From: a virus
Taxonomy: Duplodnaviria; Heunggongvirae; Uroviricota; Caudoviricetes
DNA: 31,955 nucleotides
IMG/VR virus record: IMGVR_UViG_2713896775_000007
Coordinates: 1 to 31,955 of that record
Strand: one strand, 5' to 3'
Shown: one piece after another, positions 1-20,333 of the stretch
Numbering within the stretch: the stretch's first letter is position 1
Layout of the letters: the number at the start of each line of letters is the position of its first letter
Notes under the pieces: generated by a model
What the model saw: only the letters and a program-made list of their open reading frames with translations
Database searches by the model: none
What the model was told of the DNA's origin: nothing
Made by a program: the position numbers and the translations under genes

Positions 1-46
1 GCCACGGGAGCACCTCAAAAACACCATCATACACTAAATCAGTAAG

Positions 47-1387
47 TTGGCACCATTACCCAAGTTTATTGAAGCAGACTTTGGGCTGAATGTGGCAATG
101 CGTATAGCTAATGATGAAAATATTTTGCTCAAGAAAAGTAGATTCTTTTGTGGGGGAAAGAGTCAGGAGGCATCGTCATATTCACAGTTTGTGCAAGGAT
201 CATATTTTCCTGGCGAATCCATCGAACATCTTAAAACAAAAGCCAAAGAAACTGACAAGTGGGGATGTAATAATATAACTTTTTCTGATTCAATACAGCT
301 AAGTTTAGATGGTGCCCCTACTGCATTAGTAGACGTCTTCAATGATATTGATTCTTCGTTGGCAACCAAAGAGAAAATCGAATTTCCTAAATCGGAAAAA
401 ATCACTGACGAGTCAAAGATAGATGAGCTTGATAATTATCTACTTCAATCGATCATTAAAGATGATGTAAATGTTATTATAGATGAGATTCAATCTTTTG
501 GTGCCTCTATTGTAATTAATAATTCTTTGACATTTTTTAAATTGCACACAAAAGTTGAGGGGAGTGGAAAGTATCTTCAATCAGCAGATAAGGTTAATGA
601 CATAAAAATAACAGATGTTAAGCAATTTATAAAAAACAACGACATAAAGGATGTCAATAAAGTTTTTGTTAAGATAACTAATGAAAATAACAGTGGTCAT
701 ACGGCCTCGCTAAAAGAAATATTGAGTATTACTTATAGCGATGGCAGTGAGCACTACTTCCTTAAGAGGGGAGGGTGGAGTCGATTTAACTCTGCCTTTA
801 TGAAGTATTTGTCTACCTCTTTAGCCAGTATAAAATTTGAGGTTAAAGATGCTCTAAAGGAAGACGACTTCAAAGCATGGCAAGCTGAAAAAATAAAACA
901 AATCGAAGAAGGAACTTCTAAAGACAAATTAGAATATAGAGAGTACTATTTTAATGAAAAGATGTCTGTTGAGAAAGGTTATATACTTCTAGATCGCCAG
1001 CTCAAAAAAATACCATCCTTACGTGATGATGGAAAGGACTACAATGTTGAAGTTGCAGATCTTTATAAAAATGGAGAGATTATTGCTGTAAAGATATCAG
1101 ATAAACCGCATGATCTAATTTATAATATTGAGCAGTCAAAAACTACAATTCAAACTATAGTAAGAGGAGTAGTAAAATTTGAAGAGAAAATTACTGATGT
1201 GGTTTTATGGATCTCAACTACTACAAAAGCCAAAAAATTGATTGACATCAATTCTATCCAATTTTTATTAGCGGTTCAAACTTGGAAGGAAGTTGTTGAA
1301 GGATTTAATTTGAAACCAAAGATATATTATTCGCATCACGACAAACCCAAAAAGAAAAAGGAAAAGAAAAAGCCAAAAAACGGTTGA
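47..1387 (+). CDS. Hypothetical protein, 446 aa, lysine-rich C-terminal tail (HHDKPKKKKEKKKPKNG); no recognisable catalytic motif
   Basis: Long uninterrupted ORF bounded by an in-frame stop at 35..37; TTG at 47 or ATG at 98 as start; AT-rich; convergent with the downstream operon. Confidence 0.5.
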   Translation: MAPLPKFIEADFGLNVAMRIANDENILLKKSRFFCGGKSQEASSYSQFVQGSYFPGESIEHLKTKAKETDKWGCNNITFSDSIQLSLDGAPTALVDVFNDIDSSLATKEKIEFPKSEKITDESKIDELDNYLLQSIIKDDVNVIIDEIQSFGASIVINNSLTFFKLHTKVEGSGKYLQSADKVNDIKITDVKQFIKNNDIKDVNKVFVKITNENNSGHTASLKEILSITYSDGSEHYFLKRGGWSRFNSAFMKYLSTSLASIKFEVKDALKEDDFKAWQAEKIKQIEEGTSKDKLEYREYYFNEKMSVEKGYILLDRQLKKIPSLRDDGKDYNVEVADLYKNGEIIAVKISDKPHDLIYNIEQSKTTIQTIVRGVVKFEEKITDVVLWISTTTKAKKLIDINSIQFLLAVQTWKEVVEGFNLKPKIYYSHHDKPKKKKEKKKPKNG

Positions 1388-1495
1388 TTAAAAATATTTA
1401 ATTTCCTTATCGAATAATTTCAGGAGAGAAAAGAACATTCTAATTACCACATTATCAATATTATTTGAGTGTATTGATGGATTTAAAATCTTATG

Positions 1496-1534
1496 TGGTG
1501 GTGTTATGTGAAACTTACACCACCATTGTTTATT
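1496..1534. terminator. Candidate bidirectional intrinsic terminator between convergent genes
   Basis: 9-bp perfect stem TGGTGGTGT (1496..1504) / ACACCACCA (1517..1525), 12-nt loop, followed by TTGTTTATT. Confidence 0.45.
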
Positions 1535-1648
1535 GAACATTTTTAAGAACTTTCAAAATTTACTCTGGATGTTGGTTATAAACTCCATAGCTGATAAGCT
1601 GTGGCACTATTTATGCAATCATAGTGCCCTCATAATCTCTGTACGATT

Positions 1649-3469
1649 TTATTTGAAATGAATTAAACCATAGTTGCCTCTTAATTCATTATCAACAAGA
1701 GTAAAGTTCGTCATTTCTCTGTCAAGCCAATAAGACTCTTCAATATGCTCTAACAGTATTATTTGGAAACCACCATGAGACCGCATTTTCTCAACAAAAG
1801 AATTAATTTCATTTAGGGCTGCATCAAGACTTGCAAAGTCATCAGTTTTTTTACCAGCAGTACTAAAATATGGAGTGCTGGGCTGGTCAATGACTAAGAA
1901 TCGTGGAACCCACGGTACTTTTCTATCTCTTACCAATTCGTGAAGTGCAAGGAAATAAGCTACATGTACATACATATAGTTAGAAGCACTTCCAATATCT
2001 ATCATTTTTTCAACTTGATTTTTATTTATTAAATCAAGTGTTTTTTTTGCCTTGTTGAATATCGGAGTTGCATCCTCAAATCCTTTTAAAGGCATCCGTT
2101 TGAATATTTCCTTTATTTTTCCGTTCAGTAAACTCAATGTATATTCTTTAAAGGCATTATTATCTGTTATCTTGCTTTCTAACTCATTAATTTTAGTAGT
2201 TATCTTTTCTATAGTATCAGTATAATCATATTTAGGGAGAACAACTATCCGTTTAATTTCAGAGCTGAGTTCACCCATGAACCGATAAAGCTCGATTGGC
2301 GTGATTTTTTCATCACTAACAGTTGCAAGTTTTTTACTCAAGGATGATATTTTAAGTTCTAACTCTTTTCTCTTAGCATTTGTTTTTGATATGAGTGAGT
2401 TTTGTCCTTTTTCGGCTATAGCCTTTTTTATCTCTGAGCTTTGGTTCAATAAGGATTTAATGATTGAATAGATTTTTTTTGTATATAATATTTCGCTATA
2501 ATTATCATCTAGATATTTGGCTATTAAAAGAGAGTCTTGGTTATCTTTTAAAAACTTCTTATATTCAGTATTTGTTTCTATATATTCATTAATGTCTGTC
2601 AGTTCTTTTTTTAAGAGGAAAAGTTCTTTTTCAATTTTTGTTCTTTCATTAATTGCTGGGATTTCGTTTATATCCTTGTAATTAACTATCGCTTTCAAAT
2701 TTTCAAGTTTATCACTTACAGTTGGTTCATTCTTGCTGTTTTCACTTATTAAACCAAAATAATACGCCCTGTCGTATAGTGATTCTATTTCACTTTCGAA
2801 ATTGAAATAAGAGTCTTTGCTAGCCGACTGTTTATATTCGATACGAGCAAGATTCCTTTGTAATTCTTCTAACCGCGTTCTCATTATCATAGTTTCGGCG
2901 TTTTCACTGCCAAGAGCCATGTCAAAGGTTCGGTCAATACGCTCTCTTGTCTTTAAATCAGAGATTTTCGAATAAAGATGTTCTGAAGAGGTTAGTGTTG
3001 TTTGATCTATAAAGCAATGCGGGATAAAATATCTATAGGATACTTTTGACCCTTGTTGTATGAATCTACCACCATAAGGGATTTTTAGAGAACTATTAAT
3101 ACCAAACTCATAATTCAGATGTTCTTTTAAAACATCCTTTTTGATATTGTTAATAGGGATTTGTGGAATGCCTCCATTTTTGTCAAAGTAAACTAGATCA
3201 TCTTCTTCAAAGTGTGTCGCTTTTCTACAAATAGTGAAATATTTACCGTTTATACTTAATCTAATCCCATACCAATTTACAAAATTATCGACATTTGTTT
3301 TTGATATACCATCAGATGATGAGGATAAAAGGCAATAATCAATGATAGCCAGTATTGAGGATTTCCCTTTGCCAGAATCACCTGTTATTACATTTACCTT
3401 ATTTTCCTCAAGTTCTAAATTCCTCAAGGTTGAATCAATTTGCCATATTAAAATATTAGTAATCTGCAT
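1649..3469 (-). CDS. SMC/Rad50-like ABC ATPase with coiled-coil insert; LmuB-like ATPase component of a Lamassu/ABC-3C system
   Basis: N-terminal Walker A GDSGKGKSS; long K/E/L-rich central segment (coiled coil); C-terminal Walker B-like RFLVIDQPS and H-loop-like QIILLEH; 1-nt overlap with upstream gene. Confidence 0.7.
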   Translation of the reverse strand: MQITNILIWQIDSTLRNLELEENKVNVITGDSGKGKSSILAIIDYCLLSSSSDGISKTNVDNFVNWYGIRLSINGKYFTICRKATHFEEDDLVYFDKNGGIPQIPINNIKKDVLKEHLNYEFGINSSLKIPYGGRFIQQGSKVSYRYFIPHCFIDQTTLTSSEHLYSKISDLKTRERIDRTFDMALGSENAETMIMRTRLEELQRNLARIEYKQSASKDSYFNFESEIESLYDRAYYFGLISENSKNEPTVSDKLENLKAIVNYKDINEIPAINERTKIEKELFLLKKELTDINEYIETNTEYKKFLKDNQDSLLIAKYLDDNYSEILYTKKIYSIIKSLLNQSSEIKKAIAEKGQNSLISKTNAKRKELELKISSLSKKLATVSDEKITPIELYRFMGELSSEIKRIVVLPKYDYTDTIEKITTKINELESKITDNNAFKEYTLSLLNGKIKEIFKRMPLKGFEDATPIFNKAKKTLDLINKNQVEKMIDIGSASNYMYVHVAYFLALHELVRDRKVPWVPRFLVIDQPSTPYFSTAGKKTDDFASLDAALNEINSFVEKMRSHGGFQIILLEHIEESYWLDREMTNFTLVDNELRGNYGLIHFK

Positions 3470-3915
3470 TATAATCTAACTCCACAAATGTCATATATAT
3501 TGTGTGGTTCTTCTAATAATAAACGTGCAACGTTTATAGATGCTGCCTGTATTTTTACGGCTCTTTTGCCAATAAACGGGATCGCATTATCTAATATTAA
3601 CTTGTTTTTAAATGCTAATTTACCGTGTTCTAATTCAGCTATTCCATTTTCAAGGCACAATGAAACACAATTAACTGAGGATGGAAGGAAATTATAGAAT
3701 CTTTTATTTATGGATACTATTATTTCGGGCTTGGTTAAAAGTAGATCTTGAAAAGATAGTGTATTGGTTCTCTTGTGGGCAAGGTAATCTAAGCTTTTTT
3801 TATGAAATATAATTGGTAAAATTAGCATTGCATTGCTTATTTCAATATTTGATGCTATTGATAACACCTCTTGCAAAGAGAATATACCCAAAAGCTCATT
3901 GTTATATATTTTCAT
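3469..3915 (-). CDS. Small middle component (LmuC-like) of a three-gene Lamassu/ABC-3C operon
   Basis: 148-aa ORF sandwiched between effector and ATPase with 4-nt (ATGA) and 1-nt overlaps, implying translational coupling; size and position fit the middle component. Confidence 0.5.
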   Translation of the reverse strand: MKIYNNELLGIFSLQEVLSIASNIEISNAMLILPIIFHKKSLDYLAHKRTNTLSFQDLLLTKPEIIVSINKRFYNFLPSSVNCVSLCLENGIAELEHGKLAFKNKLILDNAIPFIGKRAVKIQAASINVARLLLEEPHNIYDICGVRL

Positions 3916-5111
3916 TTATAGACTGACTCCCAGTTTTGAAGCCATCCTATTTTGGGCTTATCTGAAAGGAGCAAGAACGTTCCTGTAGTCATAGATTTAG
4001 GTAATTGATTTTTATCCAACACAATATTACAGTTTCCTGTCAATTCAGTATAGACAGAGAAGGCTTTATTAAGATGATCTTCATTTATTTCTGTAAAACG
4101 GCTTCGTATATACGTTGCTGAATGACGTGATTGCCATTCATCAAGCGCTTTTAGATATATTAGTCTTTCTTCTTGAGTTGTTAAATCTCCAGAGCTTTGC
4201 AATTTTTGAATGAAAGCTTCTGTTTTGGCCATTTCATTTATATATTTTACGATTGAATCGCTATTCAAATCCAAATCTTTGAGTTGTTTGTAAGATATCT
4301 TTGATTCAACGTTAGTTGGGTATGCAGATTCAAAATCGTAGTATTGGTCGAAATTATTTATACAATTTCTTGAAATTTGAATAATCCTATCTATTCCCAA
4401 ATTATTTCGAAAATCATCATAACTTATATTTATTTTGGTGTGATTTTTAACCAAATCATATTTATGTTTAAAAAAAGCACCTGAAATATAATTAAAAGCA
4501 TCATCTATTTTATCATCAGGGATTGCTAATGTTTTTAGTAATGTTTTTATTTGGCGGATGATCCCATCTTCGCTATGTTGAAAACTTATACTATTAAATA
4601 AACGTTTAGAAGAATTGCTATCGAGTGAGTTTATGATAGAAATATACTTATAAAGGTCATCTGACTTATTTTTATGATCTTGTTCTATCTTTTCTATTTC
4701 ATCTTTTATTTTTTCAATGTCCTTAGTGTCGTTAGTCAAAAGTTGCACGATACCAGGCTCTAAGGTAAGACCTTTGTTAGTGTAAAAAATAAGGCTAATG
4801 CTTTTGTCGCCTATGGTCTTAATCGCCTCTGACCAATTATATAATGTTTTCCATAAGTCTATGTCTTTATTAGTTATATTAGACTTGTTAATTGAATGTT
4901 TAACTTGAACCAAAGTTTTATGACCCTCGATGCTCTCAAGATGGAGATCGTCATAAACTTCAATCCCAATGTGTTCTTCTGGTTTAAGCTCTAAGGCATG
5001 TTTTAAAGCAACGTAATCTTGATAGGTAAAACCTATTGAATTTTTGTCAGCATTAGTTTTTTCAAAGAAATCCATATGGTAGCCCACTAAGGAAACAAGC
5101 AATGAAAGCAT
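3912..5111 (-). CDS. Effector component (LmuA-like) of a Lamassu/ABC-3C system; N-terminal region compatible with a PD-(D/E)xK-type nuclease
   Basis: 399-aa ORF, first gene of the operon; N-terminal IGIEVYDDLHLE...LVQVKHS resembles a D...(E/Q)xK nuclease signature; start uncertain (ATG at 5111 or 5075). Confidence 0.5.
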   Translation of the reverse strand: MLSLLVSLVGYHMDFFEKTNADKNSIGFTYQDYVALKHALELKPEEHIGIEVYDDLHLESIEGHKTLVQVKHSINKSNITNKDIDLWKTLYNWSEAIKTIGDKSISLIFYTNKGLTLEPGIVQLLTNDTKDIEKIKDEIEKIEQDHKNKSDDLYKYISIINSLDSNSSKRLFNSISFQHSEDGIIRQIKTLLKTLAIPDDKIDDAFNYISGAFFKHKYDLVKNHTKINISYDDFRNNLGIDRIIQISRNCINNFDQYYDFESAYPTNVESKISYKQLKDLDLNSDSIVKYINEMAKTEAFIQKLQSSGDLTTQEERLIYLKALDEWQSRHSATYIRSRFTEINEDHLNKAFSVYTELTGNCNIVLDKNQLPKSMTTGTFLLLSDKPKIGWLQNWESVYK

Positions 5112-5325
5112 AAAAAAACATCAGTATCTTTTTTTTACCATATCAAACACTAAAAACATATGGAAGCATACGTATCAAAGTTTAGTTATATAACCTTATG
5201 TTTTTATACTGGTTTTATGTACATGTGCGCTTTCAATCCGATGAGAATGTTTTAGCTAAGGGGCATTCGTCAGTATATGGGCTTTCCAGGCTCTCCCTAT
5301 CCTTCTTGCTAATCCCCTGTATCAG

Positions 5326-6555
5326 TCAAGCAGCGATAGCTTTAGCTCTTTGAGTTTGAACGTAATCACTCCACCATTGCATCAAACTCTGTCGTTCTAT
5401 CAGATATTCTGCACGATTGTATGCTGCGATAATTTCATCTTTTTTAGAGTGGGCGAGTGCTGCCTCAAGAACTTCAGCTCTGAACTTACCAGACTCCTCT
5501 GCCGCTGTTCTTGCAATCGAACGCATACCGTGAGCTACAAGTTCGCCTCCAAACCCCATTCGGATAATAGCTGCGTTGGCTGTTTGTTCATGCATATGAT
5601 TAAGAGGCGCTTTAATGCTGGGGAAAACCCATTCTCTATGCCCACTTATTGATTTCATTAATTCAAGGATGTGCAAAGCTTCTTTACTCAAAGGAACTTT
5701 GTGAGGCTTTTTCATTTTCATAAAATCAGCAGGAATGTTCCAAATGTTGTTGGTTGTATCAATATCAGACCACCTTGCGCGAACGGCTTCACCCGGACGA
5801 ACCCATGTCAACAATTGCCATTCAATTAGCATACGTGTTTCCAGCCGGATTGACGCATTCGTCAAAGATTCCATAAACCTTGGCAATTCGCTTGGGGGAA
5901 GGGCAGGCATATTTTGCTTTTTTGGTTTACTGAATCTTTGACCAAGGTTGTCAGCCGGATTGAACTCAATAAGTTCTTCAGTGGCTGCCCACCGGAAGAT
6001 TTCATTCAGACGTGAAATGATGCGGCGTAGAGTTTCCAATACGCCTCGTTGCTCAATAGGATCAAGGTGTTGTTTTAAGAGCTTAGGTCGGATCTCATTG
6101 ATAGGGACATTACCCAGGCCAGGAAAGACATTTCTCTCTAAGCTGCGCCAGATGTCTGCTGCATGGTCTTGTGAGATACCTGAGGTCTTTACCTTCTCAT
6201 CCAACCATTTCCTTGCCACGGCTTGGAGAGTGTGTTCAGTAGCATTCTTTAAGGCATTAGCTTTATCGTTGTTATGAACTTGGGGATCAATGCCATTAGC
6301 AAGCAAGGAAAGGTATTCATCTCGTAAGGCTCTGGCTCTTGCCAGTGTAAGGTGAGGATATGTCCCAAGGCTCATTTTGGTTCTTTTTTTACTGACTGGC
6401 ACTGCATACCTGAAATACCAATTCTTCTTTCCTCCTTTCGAGAGGGGAGCGATTCGTAGTATCAAACCATCTCCGTCAAACAAGTTGATTTCTTTGTCGG
6501 CTGGCTTGGTGCTTTTGATTTCAGTGTCAGTGAGCTTCTTAGCGATTTTTGCCAT
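5326..6555 (-). CDS. int: Tyrosine integrase, P4/CP4-57 (IntA) type
   Basis: N-terminal arm-binding-like region (TDTEIKSTKP...LFDGDGLILRI...WYFRY) and C-terminal catalytic region with R...H..R...Y-type residues (HGMRSIART...AYNRAEY); likely start at the internal ATG at 6555 rather than the longest ORF at 6597. Confidence 0.85.
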   Translation of the reverse strand: MAKIAKKLTDTEIKSTKPADKEINLFDGDGLILRIAPLSKGGKKNWYFRYAVPVSKKRTKMSLGTYPHLTLARARALRDEYLSLLANGIDPQVHNNDKANALKNATEHTLQAVARKWLDEKVKTSGISQDHAADIWRSLERNVFPGLGNVPINEIRPKLLKQHLDPIEQRGVLETLRRIISRLNEIFRWAATEELIEFNPADNLGQRFSKPKKQNMPALPPSELPRFMESLTNASIRLETRMLIEWQLLTWVRPGEAVRARWSDIDTTNNIWNIPADFMKMKKPHKVPLSKEALHILELMKSISGHREWVFPSIKAPLNHMHEQTANAAIIRMGFGGELVAHGMRSIARTAAEESGKFRAEVLEAALAHSKKDEIIAAYNRAEYLIERQSLMQWWSDYVQTQRAKAIAA

Positions 6556-6652
6556 TTTGGGACCCTCGGTTTTTGGACCCTTCTTAGTGGGTCCCATTCA
6601 GGGTGCCATAAGTGATAGTTCTCAGCAATTCTCACTGGACGACAATAGACGT

Positions 6653-6684
6653 AAAAAAGCCCGCAGAGCTTGTGCTGTGCGGGC
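6653..6684 (-). terminator. Candidate rho-independent terminator (minus strand) between the tmRNA fragment and the integrase
   Basis: Stem GCCCGCA / TGCGGGC with ~12-nt loop, followed on the minus strand by a T6 run (plus-strand AAAAAA at 6653..6658). Confidence 0.45.
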
Positions 6685-6720
6685 TTAGTAGACTTCATTG
6701 TACTTCAAACAACTAAAAAG

Positions 6721-6765
6721 TGGTGGAGCTGGCGGGAGTTGAACCCGCGTCCGAAATTCCTACAT
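6721..6765 (-). other. ssrA: 3'-terminal fragment of a tmRNA (ssrA)-like gene; probable attachment-site repeat
   Basis: Minus strand reads ATGTAGGAATTTCGGACGCGGGTTCAACTCCCGCCAGCTCCACCA: tRNA-like T-arm and acceptor 3' strand ending CCA, matching the E. coli ssrA 3' end as recalled; adjacent upstream sequence is AT-rich and not tmRNA-like. Confidence 0.75.
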
Positions 6766-6878
6766 ACTATTTTTACTGTAATAAAAACAGTGAATTACGT
6801 TTAAAAACAGTCCTTTAGTGTTATTTGCTGTTTATATGTTTTATGCGTTTTTAATGCTCTGCCGCCACTTTGTCGCCA

Positions 6879-7937
6879 TTAAATGCGCTGGTCATTTGAT
6901 ATAGGTAAAATGCTTGTAAAGAGTTTTTCGTCATATAGTGCGTACTCAGGTATGTAATCACCATTGCTTTTACCTGTTTGGAAGATAGAGGGGTCCTTGT
7001 CGATTAAAACATATAACTCAATGAGAATATTTCTTAGTCCCCAAAGCATTTGCTTTAGTTGTTTTTCATCATTGAATGAGATGCTTATGGCTTCCGTATC
7101 TGGTTTTGGATGTTCAGGAATTATTGAGAAAAGATGTTCTTGGTATTTATAATCAATTCCAAGTAGTCTGCAAAGTTGAATTATGTTTGATTCTATGAGT
7201 TGTAGGCTAACTAATTGGTTGTCATGATTTTTGTTGTTGGACTTAAGCGATTTGTTTATGTTGTTATAATGATTTGTTGTTTTTCGAATAAAATCTTCTT
7301 CGACAGCGGTGCTATAGCCATTATCAATGGAAGATGATTTGAAAATATTTTTATAAAGAGTGTACGGATGAACTACAGATAGTTCAATACTGTCTATATC
7401 ACTAGTTTCTTTATTTAATCTTGATAATTTAAATGTTGGTAGTGTTTGGAATATATCAGCGAAGCTTTTCAGATGTGAGTAATATGAATCAGTGGTGTTT
7501 TTTTCAATAATAAGATTGATTTGCTTTTGTGTTTTTTCTATTTGGTTCTCTGTTTGTGTGGTTCTATGTATATTGTTGACGATTGCTGCAAGAGGTACCG
7601 AAGAAGCTAAAATAAATAATGGCAATTTAGAGATGTCAAGAAAGTGATTAAAACCGTCTGATGTGAAATTTAAATTGTGGCCTTTCCAAGCCCAGAGGCC
7701 ATACAAAACAAACATTTTTAACGGTACGATAATAGATGCTATGAATAATGGTTGTTTTAATAGATTTTTCTCATTTAGTTTAAGCCAATTGAAGCAATAG
7801 AACATAAGTATCAATCCAAGTATATAAGCTACACTAAAGAAGATAAAAACTCTTGGACGATTAGTGTATATCAATGCTAAGGCAATTAAGATGGTAATGA
7901 TTGCGTAGGTAATGATTAATGTGAGTTTTTTTTTCAT
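6879..7937 (-). CDS. Hypothetical membrane protein (about 4 N-terminal TM helices plus ~230-aa soluble C-terminal domain); moron downstream of the prophage integrase
   Basis: ORF begins 4 nt after the integrase stop; hydrophobic segments LTLIITYAIITILIALALIY, VFIFFSVAYILGLILMFYCF, LFIASIIVPLKMFVLYGLWAW, LPLFILASSVPLAAIV; AT-rich; start 7937 or 7979. Confidence 0.5.
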   Translation of the reverse strand: MKKKLTLIITYAIITILIALALIYTNRPRVFIFFSVAYILGLILMFYCFNWLKLNEKNLLKQPLFIASIIVPLKMFVLYGLWAWKGHNLNFTSDGFNHFLDISKLPLFILASSVPLAAIVNNIHRTTQTENQIEKTQKQINLIIEKNTTDSYYSHLKSFADIFQTLPTFKLSRLNKETSDIDSIELSVVHPYTLYKNIFKSSSIDNGYSTAVEEDFIRKTTNHYNNINKSLKSNNKNHDNQLVSLQLIESNIIQLCRLLGIDYKYQEHLFSIIPEHPKPDTEAISISFNDEKQLKQMLWGLRNILIELYVLIDKDPSIFQTGKSNGDYIPEYALYDEKLFTSILPISNDQRI

Positions 7938-7941
7938 TCTA

Positions 7942-8958
7942 TTAAACCAAATTATGTAAAGGATTTTTTGTAACAGCATCTTCTAGATGGTCTGGAGAAA
8001 AGTGTGCGTAAACCATCGTCATTTTTATATCGGCATGGCCCAATATTTCTTTAAGGACAAGAATATTCCCGCCATTCATCATAAAATGACTGGCGAATGT
8101 ATGACGCAGCACGTGGGTGCATTGGCCCTCTGGTAGCTCGATGCCTGCTCGCTTTACTGCTCGTTCAAAGGCTTTTCTGCACGGTGTGAATAGTTTCCCT
8201 CTGTTCTTGGGGAGTTCATCATACAGATTTTGAGATATCGGCACGGTACGATTTTTCTTACCTTTTGTCTTGGTATAGGTGATCCGGTATTTTGATAACT
8301 GATGGCCCTGCAAGTTTTCTGCTTCACTCCATCGCGCACCAGTAGCCAGGCATATTTTTGCAATCATTAGTAGGCTGGTGTTTTGAGATTCGGCGCAGGC
8401 ATTAAGCAGGCGTTTGATTTCGTCCGTGGAAAGAAAAGCCAATTCACCTTCAGCAATTTTGAAGGTTGGAAGCCCTGCCAGCGGGTTTGGTGCGGACCAG
8501 TGCCCTAGTTTTTTCAATGTACCGAACACCGATGACAGGTTACGCTGCTCAAGATTAACTGTGCGAGGTTTAACGGGTGACATGAACGAGCCGTCTTCAT
8601 TTTGGACCTCCCCCTTTAATCTGGCTTCCCGATATTTTGTGAAATCACCTGCTGTCAGCTCAGAGGCGATGGGATCGCCTAGACCATTACAGATAATTCT
8701 AAGTTTCGCCATCAGGCGTTTGGGGTCTGCGAGTGTTTGACCATATAGGGAATACCACTGCTCAATCACTTCTGATAATCGCCGCCGATCTTCCTTCTCA
8801 CCAAGCCATGGCTTTTTGTTTACTTCGTCCATGGTGAAGCTTTCAAATGCAATGGCTTCGCCTTTGGTAGCAAATTGCTTACGCACGCGCTTACCATTGC
8901 GTCCATTGGGATAGCACTCACACAACCATTTTCCGTTCGGCTGTTTTCTGATGGTCAT
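7942..8958 (-). CDS. int: P2-type tyrosine integrase
   Basis: 338 aa; conserved blocks GRNGKRVRKQF, TGARWSEA, HVLRHTFASHFMMNGGNILVLKEILGH...MVYAHF. Confidence 0.9.
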   Translation of the reverse strand: MTIRKQPNGKWLCECYPNGRNGKRVRKQFATKGEAIAFESFTMDEVNKKPWLGEKEDRRRLSEVIEQWYSLYGQTLADPKRLMAKLRIICNGLGDPIASELTAGDFTKYREARLKGEVQNEDGSFMSPVKPRTVNLEQRNLSSVFGTLKKLGHWSAPNPLAGLPTFKIAEGELAFLSTDEIKRLLNACAESQNTSLLMIAKICLATGARWSEAENLQGHQLSKYRITYTKTKGKKNRTVPISQNLYDELPKNRGKLFTPCRKAFERAVKRAGIELPEGQCTHVLRHTFASHFMMNGGNILVLKEILGHADIKMTMVYAHFSPDHLEDAVTKNPLHNLV

Positions 8959-8961
8959 AAG

Positions 8962-9600
8962 TTAGAGGTTCTTGATTACTTTGACTGCACGTCCTACGAC
9001 TTCCACATCATCTACAGAACATTCAAATGAAGTGTCATCTTGGTTAACTACTATTTTGTTTCCGGGTATGCGCGCAATTTTGACGATGCTTTTAACTCCG
9101 TCCATATCGACTAACCAGAAGCCATTACTGACTTGTTTAACGGACGTATCCACTACAAAGCTATTATTAGCTGTTTTAACAAATAAAGCGTTGGATGAGT
9201 CACCATCGAGCAGGCTGCTATCAAGAAGAATTTCATCACTTGCCTGCAGTTCGCCGTTCTTCAGTTCAACACGTTTGATGCTAGGAGCAACGATCTTAGA
9301 AAGTGGTCTTACAGTGACGGGAGGTTCATTTTTGAGATTTGTTTCTTCGTTCTCACACGCATACATATCTCCTTGACCAGTAGCCAGCCATAGAAGGGAA
9401 ACTCCTGTTTCAAGGGCACATTGAATTACCCATTCGGCAGGAAAGCTATCCCTTAAGTATCTGTTAGCCATAGTGCTTTTGGATACCTCCAGATGTTCGC
9501 AGAGCTGCTGTCGTGAGCTGAAGTTGTAAGCCTTAATAAGCCTGTTAATTGCATCGCGCCCACCACTATCATTTCCCGCCTTGATCAAACTCATAATCAA
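8962..9600 (-). CDS. cI: CI-type immunity repressor (phage 186 CI family)
   Basis: N-terminal HTH block RYLRDSFPAEWVIQCALETGVSLLWLATGQG typical of 186-type CI; divergent from the early lytic promoter. Confidence 0.8.
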   Translation of the reverse strand: MIMSLIKAGNDSGGRDAINRLIKAYNFSSRQQLCEHLEVSKSTMANRYLRDSFPAEWVIQCALETGVSLLWLATGQGDMYACENEETNLKNEPPVTVRPLSKIVAPSIKRVELKNGELQASDEILLDSSLLDGDSSNALFVKTANNSFVVDTSVKQVSNGFWLVDMDGVKSIVKIARIPGNKIVVNQDDTSFECSVDDVEVVGRAVKVIKNL

Positions 9601-9710: not shown

Positions 9711-9953
9711 ATGAGTACTGATATTTCAATTCGTGTACCAAAAGAGATGGCTACGCCTGCAGAGTTCGCGGAATGGGAAGGTATCTCCCGCGGCTCCGTG
9801 TATCAAAAAATTCACCATGGTCAGCTTGCTAAATACATGGTCAAGAAAGAAAAAAACAAAGGCCGCGTAAGCCTGCGTTATCTGATGTACAAAACCGATC
9901 AAGTCCGTGAATCCCTCGGTCATTCCAACTTCCGCGTCATTGTTGGTAAGTAA
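9711..9953 (+). CDS. Small HTH protein in Apl/Cox position (excisionase/early regulator-like)
   Basis: 80-aa ORF, first gene of the rightward early operon, directly opposite CI. Confidence 0.5.
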   Translation: MSTDISIRVPKEMATPAEFAEWEGISRGSVYQKIHHGQLAKYMVKKEKNKGRVSLRYLMYKTDQVRESLGHSNFRVIVGK

Positions 9954-12689: not shown

Positions 12690-15100
12690 GCCATGATGAT
12701 ATGAACAACTGCAGCGGCTTTAACGAGGTCGCCGCAGCATTCTCATGGAACAGCCCGAAAAAGGCCATTAACCCTTATCTGGACCCGGCGGAAGTTGCGC
12801 CGGTTTCTGCGCTTTCAAACCTGATCACTCTGTACGCTGTCGATAACGAGCAGGAACAGCTGCGCCGCGAGGCACTGAGTGATCAGGTCTGGGAGCGTTA
12901 TTTCTTTAATGAATCCCGTGATCCTGTCCAACGCGAAATGGAGCAGGATAAACTCATTAGCCGGGCAAAGCTGGCGCATGAGCAGCAGCGTTTTAATCCG
13001 GATATGGTCATTCTGGCGGACGTCAACGCCCAGCCTTCCCATATCAGCAAGCCGCTGATGCAACGTATTGAATACTTCAGCAGCCTGGGCAGGCCAAAGG
13101 CTTATTCCCGCTATTTGCGTGAGACGATTAAGCCATGTCTGGAACGACTGGAGCATGTACGCGAGAGTCAGCTATCCACTTCTTTTCGCTTTATGGCAAG
13201 CCATGAAGGGCTGGACGGCCTGCTGATCCTGCCTGAAATGAGTCAGGATCAGGTGAAACGCCTGTCTACTCTTGTCGCTGCGCATATGAGCATGTGTCTT
13301 GATGCCGCTTGTGGTGATTTGTACACCACCGAAGATGTTAAGCCAGAAGAAATCCGCAAGACATGGGAAAAGGTGGCAGCAGAAACCCTGCGACTGGATG
13401 TCATACCGCCTGCGTTTGAGCATCTCCGCCGGAAAAGAAACCGCCGTAAACCCGTGCCCTATGAACTTATTCCGGGTTCGCTGGCGCGTATGTTGTGCGC
13501 CGACTGGTGGTACCGGAAATTATGGAAGATGCGTAGCGAATGGCGGGAAGAGCAGTTGCGTGCTATTTGCCTGGTCAGCAAAAAAGCATCTCCCTATGTC
13601 AGCTATGAAGCCGTGATGCATAAACGTGAGCAGCGCCGTAAGTCGCTGGAGTTTTTCCGTTCTCATGAACTGGTGAACGAAGACGGCGACACGCTGGATA
13701 TGGAAGACGTGGTAAACGCCAGCAGCAGCAACCCTGCGCATCGCCGCAATGAGATGATGGCCTGTGTTAAAGGTCTGGAGCTTATCGCGGAAATGCGCGG
13801 TGACTGCGCCGTTTTCTACACCATCACCTGTCCGTCACGTTTCCATTCCACGCTAAATAACGGCAGGCCAAACCCGACCTGGACCAACGCGACAGTAAGA
13901 CAAAGCAGCGATTATCTGGTCGGCATGTTTGCTGCATTTCGTAAGGCTATGCACAAAGCCGGGTTGCGCTGGTATGGCGTGCGGGTGGCTGAGCCGCATC
14001 ATGATGGCACAGTTCACTGGCACCTGTTGTGTTTCATGCGCAAAAAAGACCGCCGTGCCATCACTGCATTACTGCGTAAGTTTGCCATCCGTGAAGACCG
14101 CGAGGAGCTGGGCAATAACACTGGGCCGCGCTTTAAGTCTGAGTTGATTAACCCGCGCAAAGGAACGCCGACAAGCTACATCGCGAAATATATCAGTAAG
14201 AACATTGACGGTCGTGGTCTGGCTGGCGAGATCAGCAAGGAAACGGGTAAATCTCTGCGTGATAACGCTGAATACGTGAATGCCTGGGCGTCTTTGCATC
14301 GTGTTCAGCAATTCCGCTTCTTTGGCATTCCGGGGCGTCAGGCTTACCGTGAACTGCGATTGTTGGCTGGTCAGGCGGCAAGGCAACAGGGGGACAAAAA
14401 TGCAGGTGCGCCGGTACTGGATAACCCGCGTCTTGATGCCATTCTGGCTGCTGCTGATGCTGGTTGTTTTGCCACCTACATCATGAAGCAGGGCGGCGTA
14501 CTGGTTCCCCGTAAATATCACCTCATCAGAACCGCTTATGAAATCAACGAAGAGCCGACCGCCTATGGCGATCACGGCATTCGTATTTATGGCATCTGGT
14601 CACCCATTGCAGAGGGCAAGATCTGCACTCATGCAGTGAAGTGGAAAATGGTTCGTAAAGCCGTTGACGTTCAGGAGGCGGCAGCCGACCAGGGCGCTTG
14701 CGCCCCTTGGACTCGTGGCAATAACTGTCCCCTTGCTGAAAATTTGTACCAACAAGGGAAAGACAAATCAGCTGATGGAGATACCAGAACGGATATCACC
14801 CGTATGGATGACAAGGAGTTGCACGATTACCTGCACAGTATGAGCAAAAAAGAGCGCCGGGAACTGGCAGCAAGGTTACGCCTGGTGAAACCGAAACGGC
14901 GTAAAGACTACAAACAGCGAATTACAGATCATCAGCGACAGCAGCTCGTGTATGAACTGAAGTCCAGGGGATTTGATGGCAGCGAGAAAGAGGTCGATTT
15001 ACTCCTTCGCGGCGGCAGTATTCCGTCAGGAGCAGGCCTGCGTATCTTCTATCGGAACCAGCGTTTGCAGGAAGATGATAAGTGGCGGGATCTGTATTAA
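12686..15100 (+). CDS. A: Replication initiation endonuclease gpA (rolling-circle, HUH type)
   Basis: 804 aa; HUH-like [11 protein letters not shown] and tyrosine motif YIAKYISKN. Confidence 0.9.
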
Positions 15101-15685: not shown

Positions 15686-15999
15686 GAAACGTTGCCCCCA
15701 GGAGGATTCATTCTGAAGGGGGCTAGTTTGGGCAACGAGTGAAATAAGGTGTAAGGTCATTTTGATAAATGATCGTCTGCTTTGTGCAAGATGCAAACGT
15801 TTCTTCTGCTAACTTTCGTTAATTAACGAATGGCAGACTAATTCGCAACGGATAATCTGAATTTTGTAAGATTATGGGCATTTCTATAAAATTTACTAAT
15901 AATAACCTTACAATGTACACTACCGATTGAATTTTCCATAGTTGGCCTTTGGCTCTACTTACCATCTATGTTTATGTATTTTATCAAAATGGACTAAAA

Positions 16000-17892
16000 A
16001 TGAACAATACGTACATCAAAGACTATATAGAATATTACCTTAGCCTTACAACTGAACCTCAATACGCCATTATGCTTAAAGGTGCTTGGGGATCAGGTAA
16101 AACTTGGTTCATTGAACAAGTTCTTGAAGAATATAAGCAGAAGAATTCAGAGTTTAAATTTCTAAAAGTGAGTTTGTATGGCGTCAACTCTATTAAGCAG
16201 ATTGAAGATGAGTTCTATCGTCAACTTCATCCTGTCCTATCAAACAAAGCCCTTATCTTTGGTGCAAATGTACTAAAAAATACGCTTAAGGCTACTTTCA
16301 AGATCGATCTCAATGGCGATAATAAATCTGACGTTGATGTCAATACCAATGTTCCCACCATTAATCTTAACGATTTTAGTAGAAAACCAGATGGTTTTGT
16401 GCTGGTCTTTGATGATATCGAGAGAGCTGGTATAGATTTACCAATTTTATTTGGATATATAAACCACTTTGTAGAAGTAAACGGATACAAAGCGATCTTG
16501 GTTGCCAATGAAGAAGAAATAATCAATAGAGAAAAGCGAATAAATAATGATGATGAGAAATCTAGCAGCGAATACATGAGAACAAAAGAAAAGCTTGTTG
16601 GTAAAACATTTGAAGTAACGTCAGATTTACATAGTGCTTGTAATGTTTTTTTGGGCGTAATTAGCAGTTTACACGTTGCTAATATATTTAAAGAAGATAT
16701 GCAGGCCATAGAAGACATCTATGTGTCGGCGAAATATAATAATCTAAGACACTTGAGGCAGTTCTTTCTTGATGTACAACGCATCATTTCCCTTTTTGGA
16801 AATAAATATGTCAGCAACGACGATTTTATGAGGGTATTTTTCCAGCAGTTGTTAATTTTCTCGATAGAGTACCGGGGAGGGAACCTTAACTACGAGGAAT
16901 TCGATTCAATCAGCAATGTTAATTATGGTATGTTTTTAGGTAAAGAGCGTACCAAAACTAAGTATGACATGATCGTCGAGAAATATTCATCTCCTGTATT
17001 AACCGAGAAGTTACTGGATGGTGCGTACTGGAGGGAGCTAATCTGTGATGGAAAGGTAACGAGTGAACTTCTCGCTCAGTTGGATATTACGCGATTTTTT
17101 AGAAGCACCGATGCCCAAGCATGGGAGTATTTGTGGAACTATCGAGAACTTAATGAAACTATGCTTAATGAGCAGTACGCCATTGCCAAGGATAATCTAT
17201 TTTCAGGTAAGATCACTTCCTTAGGTGAACTCCTGATGACCGCGAGTATTTTGCTGGACATGGCGAAAGAAGGTCTAACAACAGATGATGTTCATGATCT
17301 CATAAATGAGACAAAACAGAATATAAATAATTATTATAATAGACTTAGAGCTGAAGATATACATAAGGAATATGCGCAAACGCATTATAACGAATTAAGG
17401 GCATGGCGTGGCTTTGGTTTTCTTGACAGGGATAGCGATGAATTCAAACTCATTATTGAGCATATTGAGATAGCGAAGAAGAAACGGTTTGATGAATCAA
17501 TTCCGGAATTTGCGTTGCAGTTCAGCGATGAGTTGCAAAGGGGAAACTTATCGTTTGTATCTGAATTGAGTCATTCTAATAATAGGCAGTTAAATCTTCA
17601 TAACGTGCCTTTTTTACACTTGGTTCCTCCTGAAGTTTTCATTGAAAGCTATAGGAAACTTGACCCAGTCCTCATGAGGAAACTGGCATTTAGCTTGCGG
17701 AATCGTTATTCTGATGGGGATGCTAGAACCAGACTGACCGAAGAATACAACTGGTTGATTAACCTAAAAGAGATAGCTGTAGATTTCACTCAAAACGCAG
17801 CCAATAACTCCTTTCAGGTTTTTCACGTAAAGTTTTTTATTGACTATGTATTAACTAGCGCAATCAAATTCTTTACTGAGGGAACTGATTAA
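16000..17892 (+). CDS. KAP-family-like P-loop NTPase (cargo; candidate anti-phage gene)
   Basis: Walker A GAWGSGKT and Walker B VLVFDDIER (hhhhDD-x-ER, KAP-like) about 115 aa apart; large helical C-terminal region; AT-rich; likely start ATG 16000. Confidence 0.75.
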   Translation: MNNTYIKDYIEYYLSLTTEPQYAIMLKGAWGSGKTWFIEQVLEEYKQKNSEFKFLKVSLYGVNSIKQIEDEFYRQLHPVLSNKALIFGANVLKNTLKATFKIDLNGDNKSDVDVNTNVPTINLNDFSRKPDGFVLVFDDIERAGIDLPILFGYINHFVEVNGYKAILVANEEEIINREKRINNDDEKSSSEYMRTKEKLVGKTFEVTSDLHSACNVFLGVISSLHVANIFKEDMQAIEDIYVSAKYNNLRHLRQFFLDVQRIISLFGNKYVSNDDFMRVFFQQLLIFSIEYRGGNLNYEEFDSISNVNYGMFLGKERTKTKYDMIVEKYSSPVLTEKLLDGAYWRELICDGKVTSELLAQLDITRFFRSTDAQAWEYLWNYRELNETMLNEQYAIAKDNLFSGKITSLGELLMTASILLDMAKEGLTTDDVHDLINETKQNINNYYNRLRAEDIHKEYAQTHYNELRAWRGFGFLDRDSDEFKLIIEHIEIAKKKRFDESIPEFALQFSDELQRGNLSFVSELSHSNNRQLNLHNVPFLHLVPPEVFIESYRKLDPVLMRKLAFSLRNRYSDGDARTRLTEEYNWLINLKEIAVDFTQNAANNSFQVFHVKFFIDYVLTSAIKFFTEGTD

Positions 17893-19359: not shown

Positions 19360-19986
19360 TTATATATCAATAGAGTTTTGAAATTTTAATAACTGCCATC
19401 TTGTTAATAGTGGTTTTATTGCTATGTTGTGTTGGGTATTTATTTTTAAACCTTCGAATTTCGAATATCCATTTTCCAAGGCTTCCACTGAAAAATGAAT
19501 GGTTTTTGTTATCGGGTTTATAGCACAAAGATTTAGGTCATATAAAGTATGAATGTCACTTCTGAGCAATAATCCATTGCTAATATGATTGTGACTATCG
19601 TTTCGATATACATTAATGTGAGCAGCATCAAGAATATCAACAAGCTTACAGCCCATAACCGCACAAGTAGGATTTGATTTTAATAGCTGGTCGCGAAATG
19701 TTTTTTGCCCACTTCGTTGTTTTATTTGCCGTTCTACAATTTGCCGTTGATCTTCACCCATTAAAGTGGGGGTGTCTTTATCAGCTTCGCTGGCGTTGAG
19801 CTCCAGAATAATAGTATGTTGGGCGGTAAGCAAAGCAACAGCCCATTGATAGTTAACTTCTTGGATGGACATTTGCCCATTGTAGCGTGGAGTTTCATCT
19901 ATAAATTGTGACATTGTAATATTGGATAATTTACGGTACTGGTTGCCGCAGTATGCTATAAATTCTTTAGCTGGCTCAAAAACCAC
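19360..19986 (-). CDS. HNH endonuclease domain protein (C-terminal portion of a probable frameshifted gene)
   Basis: CAVMGC...AAHINVYRNDSHNHISNGLLLRSDIHTLYD is an HNH signature; this frame stays open upstream of the GTG at 19986 back to a stop at 20077..20079. Confidence 0.7.
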   Translation of the reverse strand: MVFEPAKEFIAYCGNQYRKLSNITMSQFIDETPRYNGQMSIQEVNYQWAVALLTAQHTIILELNASEADKDTPTLMGEDQRQIVERQIKQRSGQKTFRDQLLKSNPTCAVMGCKLVDILDAAHINVYRNDSHNHISNGLLLRSDIHTLYDLNLCAINPITKTIHFSVEALENGYSKFEGLKINTQHNIAIKPLLTRWQLLKFQNSIDI

Positions 19987-20033: not shown

Positions 20034-20333
20034 TTATAGTTTTCCTTTGAAGAATTTTTTTGCTTTGCAGTCTAGGTTAATACATTTGTTACGCTTCTTA
20101 TTAATGCTCTGTGTTTCTAATTTTTCAATAACAGATATACCTAAAATATTTTCTCTGTTGGTAATAATAATAATATCACCGTCTTTTACATTTTTGTGGT
20201 TCGCTACAAAACTGTCATAGCGATAGAAAACTGATGAGTCATCGGGATAACTATCATTTCCCCAGTATCTAAGATCGTCTTTCTCAATTGCCTTAAAAAA
20301 AACCATACTTGCTGTACCATGAACTTTTCCCAC
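20034..20333 (-). CDS. Small beta-rich N-terminal domain ORF (likely N-terminal portion of the frameshifted HNH gene)
   Basis: 99-aa ORF ending just after an A7 run; a single A insertion would fuse it in frame to the HNH ORF. Confidence 0.4.
   Translation of the reverse strand: MGKVHGTASMVFFKAIEKDDLRYWGNDSYPDDSSVFYRYDSFVANHKNVKDGDIIIITNRENILGISVIEKLETQSINKKRNKCINLDCKAKKFFKGKL

Follow-up and report, generated by a model that had tools for sequence, protein, structure and literature searches.

What does a 45-nt sequence resembling the 3′ end of a tRNA represent, when it lies on the minus strand between two integrase genes? This question is raised by the window examined here, by which we mean the whole 31,955-bp stretch of DNA that was analyzed. 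The window is the entire draft contig LDYL01000069.1 of assembly GCA_001309535.1, and the repeats bracketing the prophage, as well as the phage terminator, were read in relatives. The DNA of the two elements in the window is 95–99.6% identical to sequences in E. coli chromosomes. A sequence-only reading had proposed that the 45 nt are an att repeat dividing two integrase-bearing elements that occupy ssrA in tandem, and that these might be a P4-like satellite and its P2-like helper. We consider it very likely that the site is the attR of a P2-like prophage of the 186/Fels-2 type whose integration target was the 3′ end of ssrA.

A displaced piece of ssrA and the junction around it

The 45-mer ATGTAGGAATTTCGGACGCGGGTTCAACTCCCGCCAGCTCCACCA at positions 6721–6765 (minus strand) occurs once in the window and is identical at 45 of 45 positions to nt 319–363 of E. 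coli ssrA, as read from the intact 363-nt genes of a Logan contig (L003) and of strain NCTC9040 (L008). None of 100 shuffled sequences contained a match to it, even with three mismatches allowed. ARAGORN called no tmRNA or tRNA gene in the window and Rfam returned no match at gathering score; when the threshold was relaxed, the tmRNA model (RF00023) reached 38.6 bits against a cut-off of 47, with confident alignment only for the 3′ ~50 positions. Positions 6721–6765 do not contain the complete molecule, at gathering score, that defines a tmRNA gene under RF00023, and the sequence is a fragment of the tmRNA gene, not a gene. Because it has no 5′ acceptor strand, tag reading frame or pseudoknots, tmRNA cannot be produced from it. 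The description of the site as a 45-nt tRNA-like 3′ end on the minus strand that lacks an upstream tmRNA body was therefore borne out by the exact ssrA match and the empty ARAGORN and Rfam searches, and the observation named beforehand as speaking against it, an intact tmRNA gene across the site, was made by neither program. The interval originally assigned to the feature, 6653–6791, does include the fragment, but it is too wide, as it adds the terminator, a 34-nt spacer and 26 nt of the phage arm.

Equivalent displaced fragments carry gene annotations in some genomes. In NZ_AP022036.1 (1140562–1140738; L012 3162–3338) RefSeq places a 177-nt “ssrA transfer-messenger RNA” on the fragment, which there has a P4-type integrase on one side and the phage moron on the other, and among the matches listed an ssrA feature also underlies the junction in E6, GPEC1040, GPEC1201, and GPEC1366. 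The feature in NZ_AP022036.1 is an annotation artefact and not a second tmRNA gene. The 45-nt scar can thus be mistaken for a tmRNA gene, an error that RefSeq makes in some genomes.

To define the junction, we aligned the window in ssrA orientation with the Logan contig, NCTC9040, C21 (L010), and ET665 (L009). In the Logan contig and NCTC9040, which have the island and lack the prophage, the site is unoccupied by phage and its host arms are contiguous: the ssrA body is followed by the 45-mer core and then by the same terminator and integrase leader that are found in the window. In the window the phage arm is followed by the core and then by the terminator and integrase as in these two sequences, with identity over all 110 nt compared, and the terminator at 6653–6686 is base-for-base the sequence downstream of their ssrA. 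At the attL of C21 and ET665, the hairpin terminator that comes after the ssrA body and core is a different one, which is borne by the phage. The complete genomes of C21 and ET665 each contain exactly two copies of the 45-mer, flanking a ~36-kb prophage beside smpB-ssrA; one copy ends the intact ssrA next to smpB and the other adjoins the phage integrase ~36 kb away. The core is in this way the 3′ end of the target, matched at 45 of 45 positions and repeated at both prophage ends. As judged by these alignments, the arrangement is the textbook pair of attL (B-O-P′) and attR (P-O-B′), with the window site the predicted attR and positions 6721–6765 its predicted 45-bp core (O), which sets the exact right-hand boundary of the P2-like prophage at 6765/6766. 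The last ~16–18 nt of the same fragment would also be the proximal att core of the island carrying the P4-type integrase. The comparison of junctions, together with the two-copy bracketing in relatives, upholds the proposal of an att repeat between two elements, and two integrase-bearing elements placed in tandem at ssrA are supported.

The phage arm adjoins a tyrosine integrase gene and contains putative arm-type repeats. The repeat TGCCGCCACTT at 6860–6870, ~95 bp from the core, is an exact match to tgccGCCActt, the arm-repeat consensus of the 186-type integrase group (PMC3448106). A degenerate second copy, TGTCGCCATT, lies at 6871–6880, and an inverted counterpart, GTGGCGGCA...ATGGCGACA, is present in the P′ arm at the attL of C21 and ET665. 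Prophages of Klebsiella aerogenes have the same 45-bp core and arm repeats, and in one of them a P4-type integrase again follows. Of 5426 complete E. coli genomes, 64 covered 80% or more of a 321-nt junction probe spanning both arms; one arm alone cannot reach such coverage, so both junction arms are present in these genomes.

The other side of the core is the B′ arm, where the fold of 6645–6770 (z = -3.8) includes a stable hairpin. Rfam aligned IsrM (RF02763, a Salmonella island sRNA) in part to 6653–6730 (minus strand). The score is 56.6 bits, where the gathering score is 376, and the 329-nt model aligns at its two ends only, with the 3′ ~55 nt, which form the terminator, nearly identical. 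We take the Salmonella gene STM2763 to encode an integrase. In S. Typhimurium LT2, isrM and STM2763 have the same orientation, with isrM located immediately upstream (PMC2330248). This placement and the likeness of the terminators suggest that IsrM may share an origin with the ssrA-downstream leader, that is, that it may derive from the leader and terminator of an island with a P4-type integrase.

The two elements at the site

The coordinates of the features are collected in Table 1. The neighbors originally proposed for the fragment, a P4-type integrase 3′ of it and a moron and P2-family integrase 5′ of it, were confirmed by their open reading frames and, for the two integrases, Pfam domains.

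Table 1. Features of the locus in order along the window, with the evidence for each.
Feature	Positions	Strand	Evidence or remark
Presumed IS1 terminal 60 bp (1–60) and truncated DUF6119 gene (61–1387)	1–1387	+	left contig break
Lamassu operon	1649–5111	-	PADLOC
LmuB	1649–3469	-	PADLOC 6.6e-84; Pfam DUF3732 above cut-off
LmuC-like middle component	3469–3915	-	PADLOC 8.8e-07; Pfam MC3 above cut-off
LmuA	3912–5111	-	PADLOC 2.7e-43
P4/IntA-type tyrosine integrase, 409–423 aa	5326–6597	-	Pfam Arm-DNA-bind_3 + Phage_int_M + Phage_integrase
Terminator: hairpin and U-tract, Rho-independent (B′ arm)	6653–6686	-	terminator-like site; stable fold
Displaced ssrA 3′ fragment (part of helix 2, T-arm, 3′ acceptor strand, CCA)	6721–6765	-	exact match to ssrA
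Phage arm (P arm) of predicted attR	6766–6880	-	putative arm-type integrase-binding repeats
Low-GC moron, 352–366 aa	6879–7979 (or 6879–7937)	-	phrog_17460 (no function assigned)
P2-family (186/Fels-2-type) tyrosine integrase	7942–8958	-	Pfam Int_N (PF24624) + Phage_integrase; phrog_1, phrog_11531
186-type CI immunity repressor	8962–9600	-	Pfam Phage_CI_repr + Phage_CI_C
Apl/Cox-like excisionase and repressor	9711–9953	+	phrog_6912, phrog_575
Prophage remainder: CII, Fil, Dam, replication protein A, defence/moron hotspot, portal, terminase, scaffold, capsid, lysis, baseplate	9986–31955	+	ORFs, gene calls, Pfam for left part

The P2-like prophage extends in the window from 6766 to the contig end, which falls inside its tail-fibre gene; tail, D and ogr genes would be located beyond. 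Pfam and PHROG matches identify the gene set of a P2-like (186/Fels-2-type) prophage in P2 order, and homologous prophages annotated in ET665 and C21 have 95–96% nucleotide identity to it. The closest match on the integrase side (99.7%) is in KL53, where the prophage apparently spans only ~16 kb from ssrA to the fragment and therefore looks truncated. The interval of the prophage from replication gene A to the portal gene encodes a KAP-family P-loop NTPase (15949–17892, plus strand), for which PADLOC returned PDC-S49, a candidate defence protein (E 3.6e-159); C21 has different cargo there. This interval would correspond to the tin/old cargo hotspot of P2. Two minus-strand reading frames, 19360–19986 and 20034–20333, match the C-terminal (112–319) and N-terminal (7–91) parts, respectively, of the HNH-like phrog_21425, and from these matches look like one HNH-like gene split by a frameshift or stop.

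The moron between the integrase gene and attP had no match in Pfam or PADLOC. Its 76 homologs are all from Enterobacterales as far as the sources name genera; the gene holds the same position between int and attP in other prophages, sometimes together with a second gene with no assigned function, and a homolog in Dickeya adjoins a helicase/DUF6094 cluster. In the AF2 model of the protein (pLDDT 88), hydrophobic helices at the N terminus are accompanied by a long helix and a C-terminal alpha/beta domain, and no match to it was found among PDB folds (best E 0.64). It is conceivable, although we think it rather unlikely, that the fragment and the orphaned terminator form the 3′ end of an int-moron transcript or of an IsrM-like sRNA, and that the int-attP interval is an undescribed cargo hotspot of ssrA-targeting 186-type phages whose commonest occupant, the 352-aa protein, is a new anti-phage or exclusion factor.

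On the other side, directly 3′ of the ssrA core, lies an integrase gene with the domain architecture of the P4/IntA type (Arm-DNA-bind_3/DUF4102, central and catalytic domains), the likely start of which (MAKIAKK, at 6555) is ~165 bp from the CCA end. Its product is 48% identical to the IntA of K-12 CP4-57 and 96.6% identical to that of a gene annotated as CP4-57 integrase in LN997803. The integrase heads an island with a Lamassu defence system, in which the effector LmuA, the SMC-like ATPase LmuB and LmuC are encoded in one operon; matches of the operon to Pfam Cap4_nuclease and CTD7 (E 3.7e-4 and 9.1e-5) both fell short of the Pfam cut-off. The reverse complement of positions 1–60 reads GGTAATGGTGCCAACTTACTGATTTAGTG..., which we take to be an end of IS1, and island matches in other genomes begin at base 61. 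The DUF6119 gene codes for 446 residues in the window, with its Pfam match starting at profile position 101, and for a full-length 544 residues in the Logan contig and in a second, independent contig (L006). With the left break in IS1 and the right break in a tail-fibre gene, both contig breaks are at repeated sequences.

Relatives show what the island looks like beyond the break. That of NCTC9040 is 99.5% identical to the window over 61–6720 and continues past Lamassu and DUF6119 with hxsABCD, two hypothetical genes, IS150 and IS3, followed by chromosomal glaH-gab; neither hypothetical protein had a match in PHROGs. The gene order Lamassu-DUF6119-Hxs is shared by L003 and L006. The His-Xaa-Ser (hxsDBCA) radical-SAM maturase cluster of the relatives lies at 16227–19624 in L008 and at 13786–17183 in L003. 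Of the other att repeats that the sequence-only reading had suggested locating, the second copy was found, in C21 and ET665 as noted above, but a third was absent from NCTC9040 and C21: searches for a third ssrA 3′ end or a psaA-like variant, both exact and with up to three edits, covered the window as well as the island DNA of the two strains and gave only chance-level matches in unrelated genes. A distal psaA-like repeat bounding the island is accordingly not found in NCTC9040 or C21; K-12 has one.

Order of integration and competing explanations

The simplest history of the locus would begin with ssrA directly followed by an island-borne terminator and the P4/IntA-type integrase heading the Lamassu island, a state resembling the occupation of ssrA by CP4-57. 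The ssrA 3′ end is present on the phage as a 45-bp copy, which in lysogens completes the gene together with the phage terminator. Recombination within the core, mediated by Int, would have placed the phage between nt 318 of ssrA and the original 3′ end. The phage 45 bp and the phage-borne terminator, which would be AAGGGGTTACG...CGTAGCCCCTTTTT-like, would then complete ssrA at attL, off the contig, while the original 45 bp, the old terminator and the island would be displaced by about the length of the prophage to form attR. Together with the Int sites of the P arm (6860–6880) and Apl/Cox, attR would serve excision of the prophage; the last ~16–18 nt of the fragment would still provide the P4-type integrase with its proximal core; and the old terminator (6653–6686), orphaned from ssrA, is placed such that it could end transcripts of int and the moron. 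The remaining activity of the fragment would be that of a recombination substrate. We infer that the island arrived first, because it is IS-truncated, has no distal repeat and is present on an intact ssrA in prophage-free strains; the phage would have entered ssrA afterwards by means of its tyrosine integrase.

A variant of the fragment is seen in KL53 (L001 ~4000–4045), where the displaced copy is one T short (CAGC-CCACCA) and directly abuts the ypjA flank. This variant is that of K-12 psaA and of the excision scar delta-T357, the reported product of CP4-57 excision (PMC10107115). It suggests that in KL53 an IntA-type excision occurred at the displaced copy, not at ssrA itself, and it fits a fragment that would stay recombinogenic.

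The KL53 scar bears on whether the order of arrival could have been the reverse, with the P2-like phage integrating first and an island with a P4-type integrase later using the displaced fragment as its attB. The ~16–18 nt needed by an IntA-type integrase, as indicated by K-12 psaA, are present in the fragment, the prophage occurs without the island in ET665 and KL53, and the KL53 fragment bears delta-T357, the scar that CP4-57 excision typically leaves, so the displaced copy can be a substrate for IntA-type recombination. We nevertheless consider this order distinctly unlikely, as the island, being IS-truncated and having no distal repeat, has the look of an old and immobile element, an island 99.5% identical to it is located directly on intact ssrA in prophage-free strains, and the prophage side appears intact up to the contig end. 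It is exceedingly improbable that integration had no part in the junction and that the fragment is instead an ssrA pseudogene which decayed after a deletion, or an assembly chimera. Such an origin would account for the absent tmRNA body upstream, and the sequence is a draft contig broken at repeats; yet the fragment is a perfect copy adjoined by an integrase and arm sites, the identical 45-nt boundary is found in E. coli and K. aerogenes prophages with different flanks, and the junction recurs in 64 complete genomes. The recurrence of so precise a boundary and the two-copy bracketing refute both the pseudogene and the chimera.

The sequence-only reading had supposed that the left element might be a P4-like satellite; the fragment would then separate a functional satellite and helper pair. 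In P4-like satellites, a defence hotspot adjoins int. The integrase does belong to the P4 family by its domain architecture, and Lamassu beside int would fit that layout. However, the P4 genes named in that reading were not found: psu, delta, sid, and alpha were absent from window positions 1–6600 (Pfam, PADLOC, PHROGs), and these genes, primase and cos-associated genes were all absent from the RefSeq annotation of the complete, 99.5%-identical NCTC9040 island, so that neither has the gene complement (psu, delta, sid, alpha, cos) of a P4-like satellite. In their place the cargo is Lamassu, DUF6119 and Hxs, in an order that L003 and L006 also have; the two hypothetical proteins of the NCTC9040 island lack PHROG matches, NCTC9040 and C21 lack a distal att repeat, and the integrase is only 48% identical to the IntA of CP4-57, which is not a satellite. 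The supposition is largely refuted for the relatives of the window island, and we regard it as very improbable for the window itself. With no satellite genes and no third repeat, the left element is better described as a decayed and probably immobile CP4-57-like defence island, and the integrase to the left of the fragment is part of this separate Lamassu island, not of a satellite.

Comparison with known systems

The att scar is of a known kind, as the targeting of ssrA by Fels-2/SopEPhi-type phages and by CP4-57-type islands, and tandem arrays at tDNAs, have all been published, and the locus has little significance beyond its correct annotation. PMC3448106 and PMC10107115 (and Pelludat et al., 2003, as cited there) place the integration of Fels-2 and SopEPhi, which have P2-type integrases, in ssrA. 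Like these phages, the window prophage uses the ssrA 3′ end as its attB and has a CI/Apl-type switch and a P2-family (186-type) integrase, which is located at the prophage end distal to the intact ssrA, and its copy would regenerate the unchanged ...CGCCAGCTCCACCA end of the gene (PMC10107115). It differs from the Salmonella phages in being an E. coli prophage with different morons, namely the int-attP gene and the PDC-S49 KAP NTPase. With phage 186 it shares the arm-repeat consensus tgccGCCActt and the set of CI, Apl, CII, and Fil, whereas 186 targets tRNA-Ile genes and not ssrA (PMC3448106).

The counterpart of the island is CP4-57, annotated at ssrA in K-12 with a distal repeat, psaA, of only ~16 nt. 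Both have a P4-type integrase directly 3′ of ssrA behind an island-borne terminator, carry anti-phage genes and occupy the site between ssrA and the ypjA/gab region. They differ in their integrases (48% identical) and in their cargo, which is Lamassu, DUF6119 and Hxs instead of alpA, abpAB, rnlAB and others, and the closest complete relatives have neither ypjA nor a distal psaA repeat. Under the Islander principle, a regenerated tDNA and a displaced fragment mark the ends of an island, tandem arrays occur, and the tmRNA gene is the most enriched target (PMC4383910). The strict Islander definition assigns a fragment to each member of an array, whereas in the relatives examined here only the prophage has one, the inner island having lost its own. 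As in the Islander/TIGER tandem arrays, there is a regenerated target, a displaced 3′ fragment and more than one integrase-bearing element at a single tDNA, and the locus further illustrates how ssrA serves as a multi-occupancy integration hotspot at which defence cargo accumulates.
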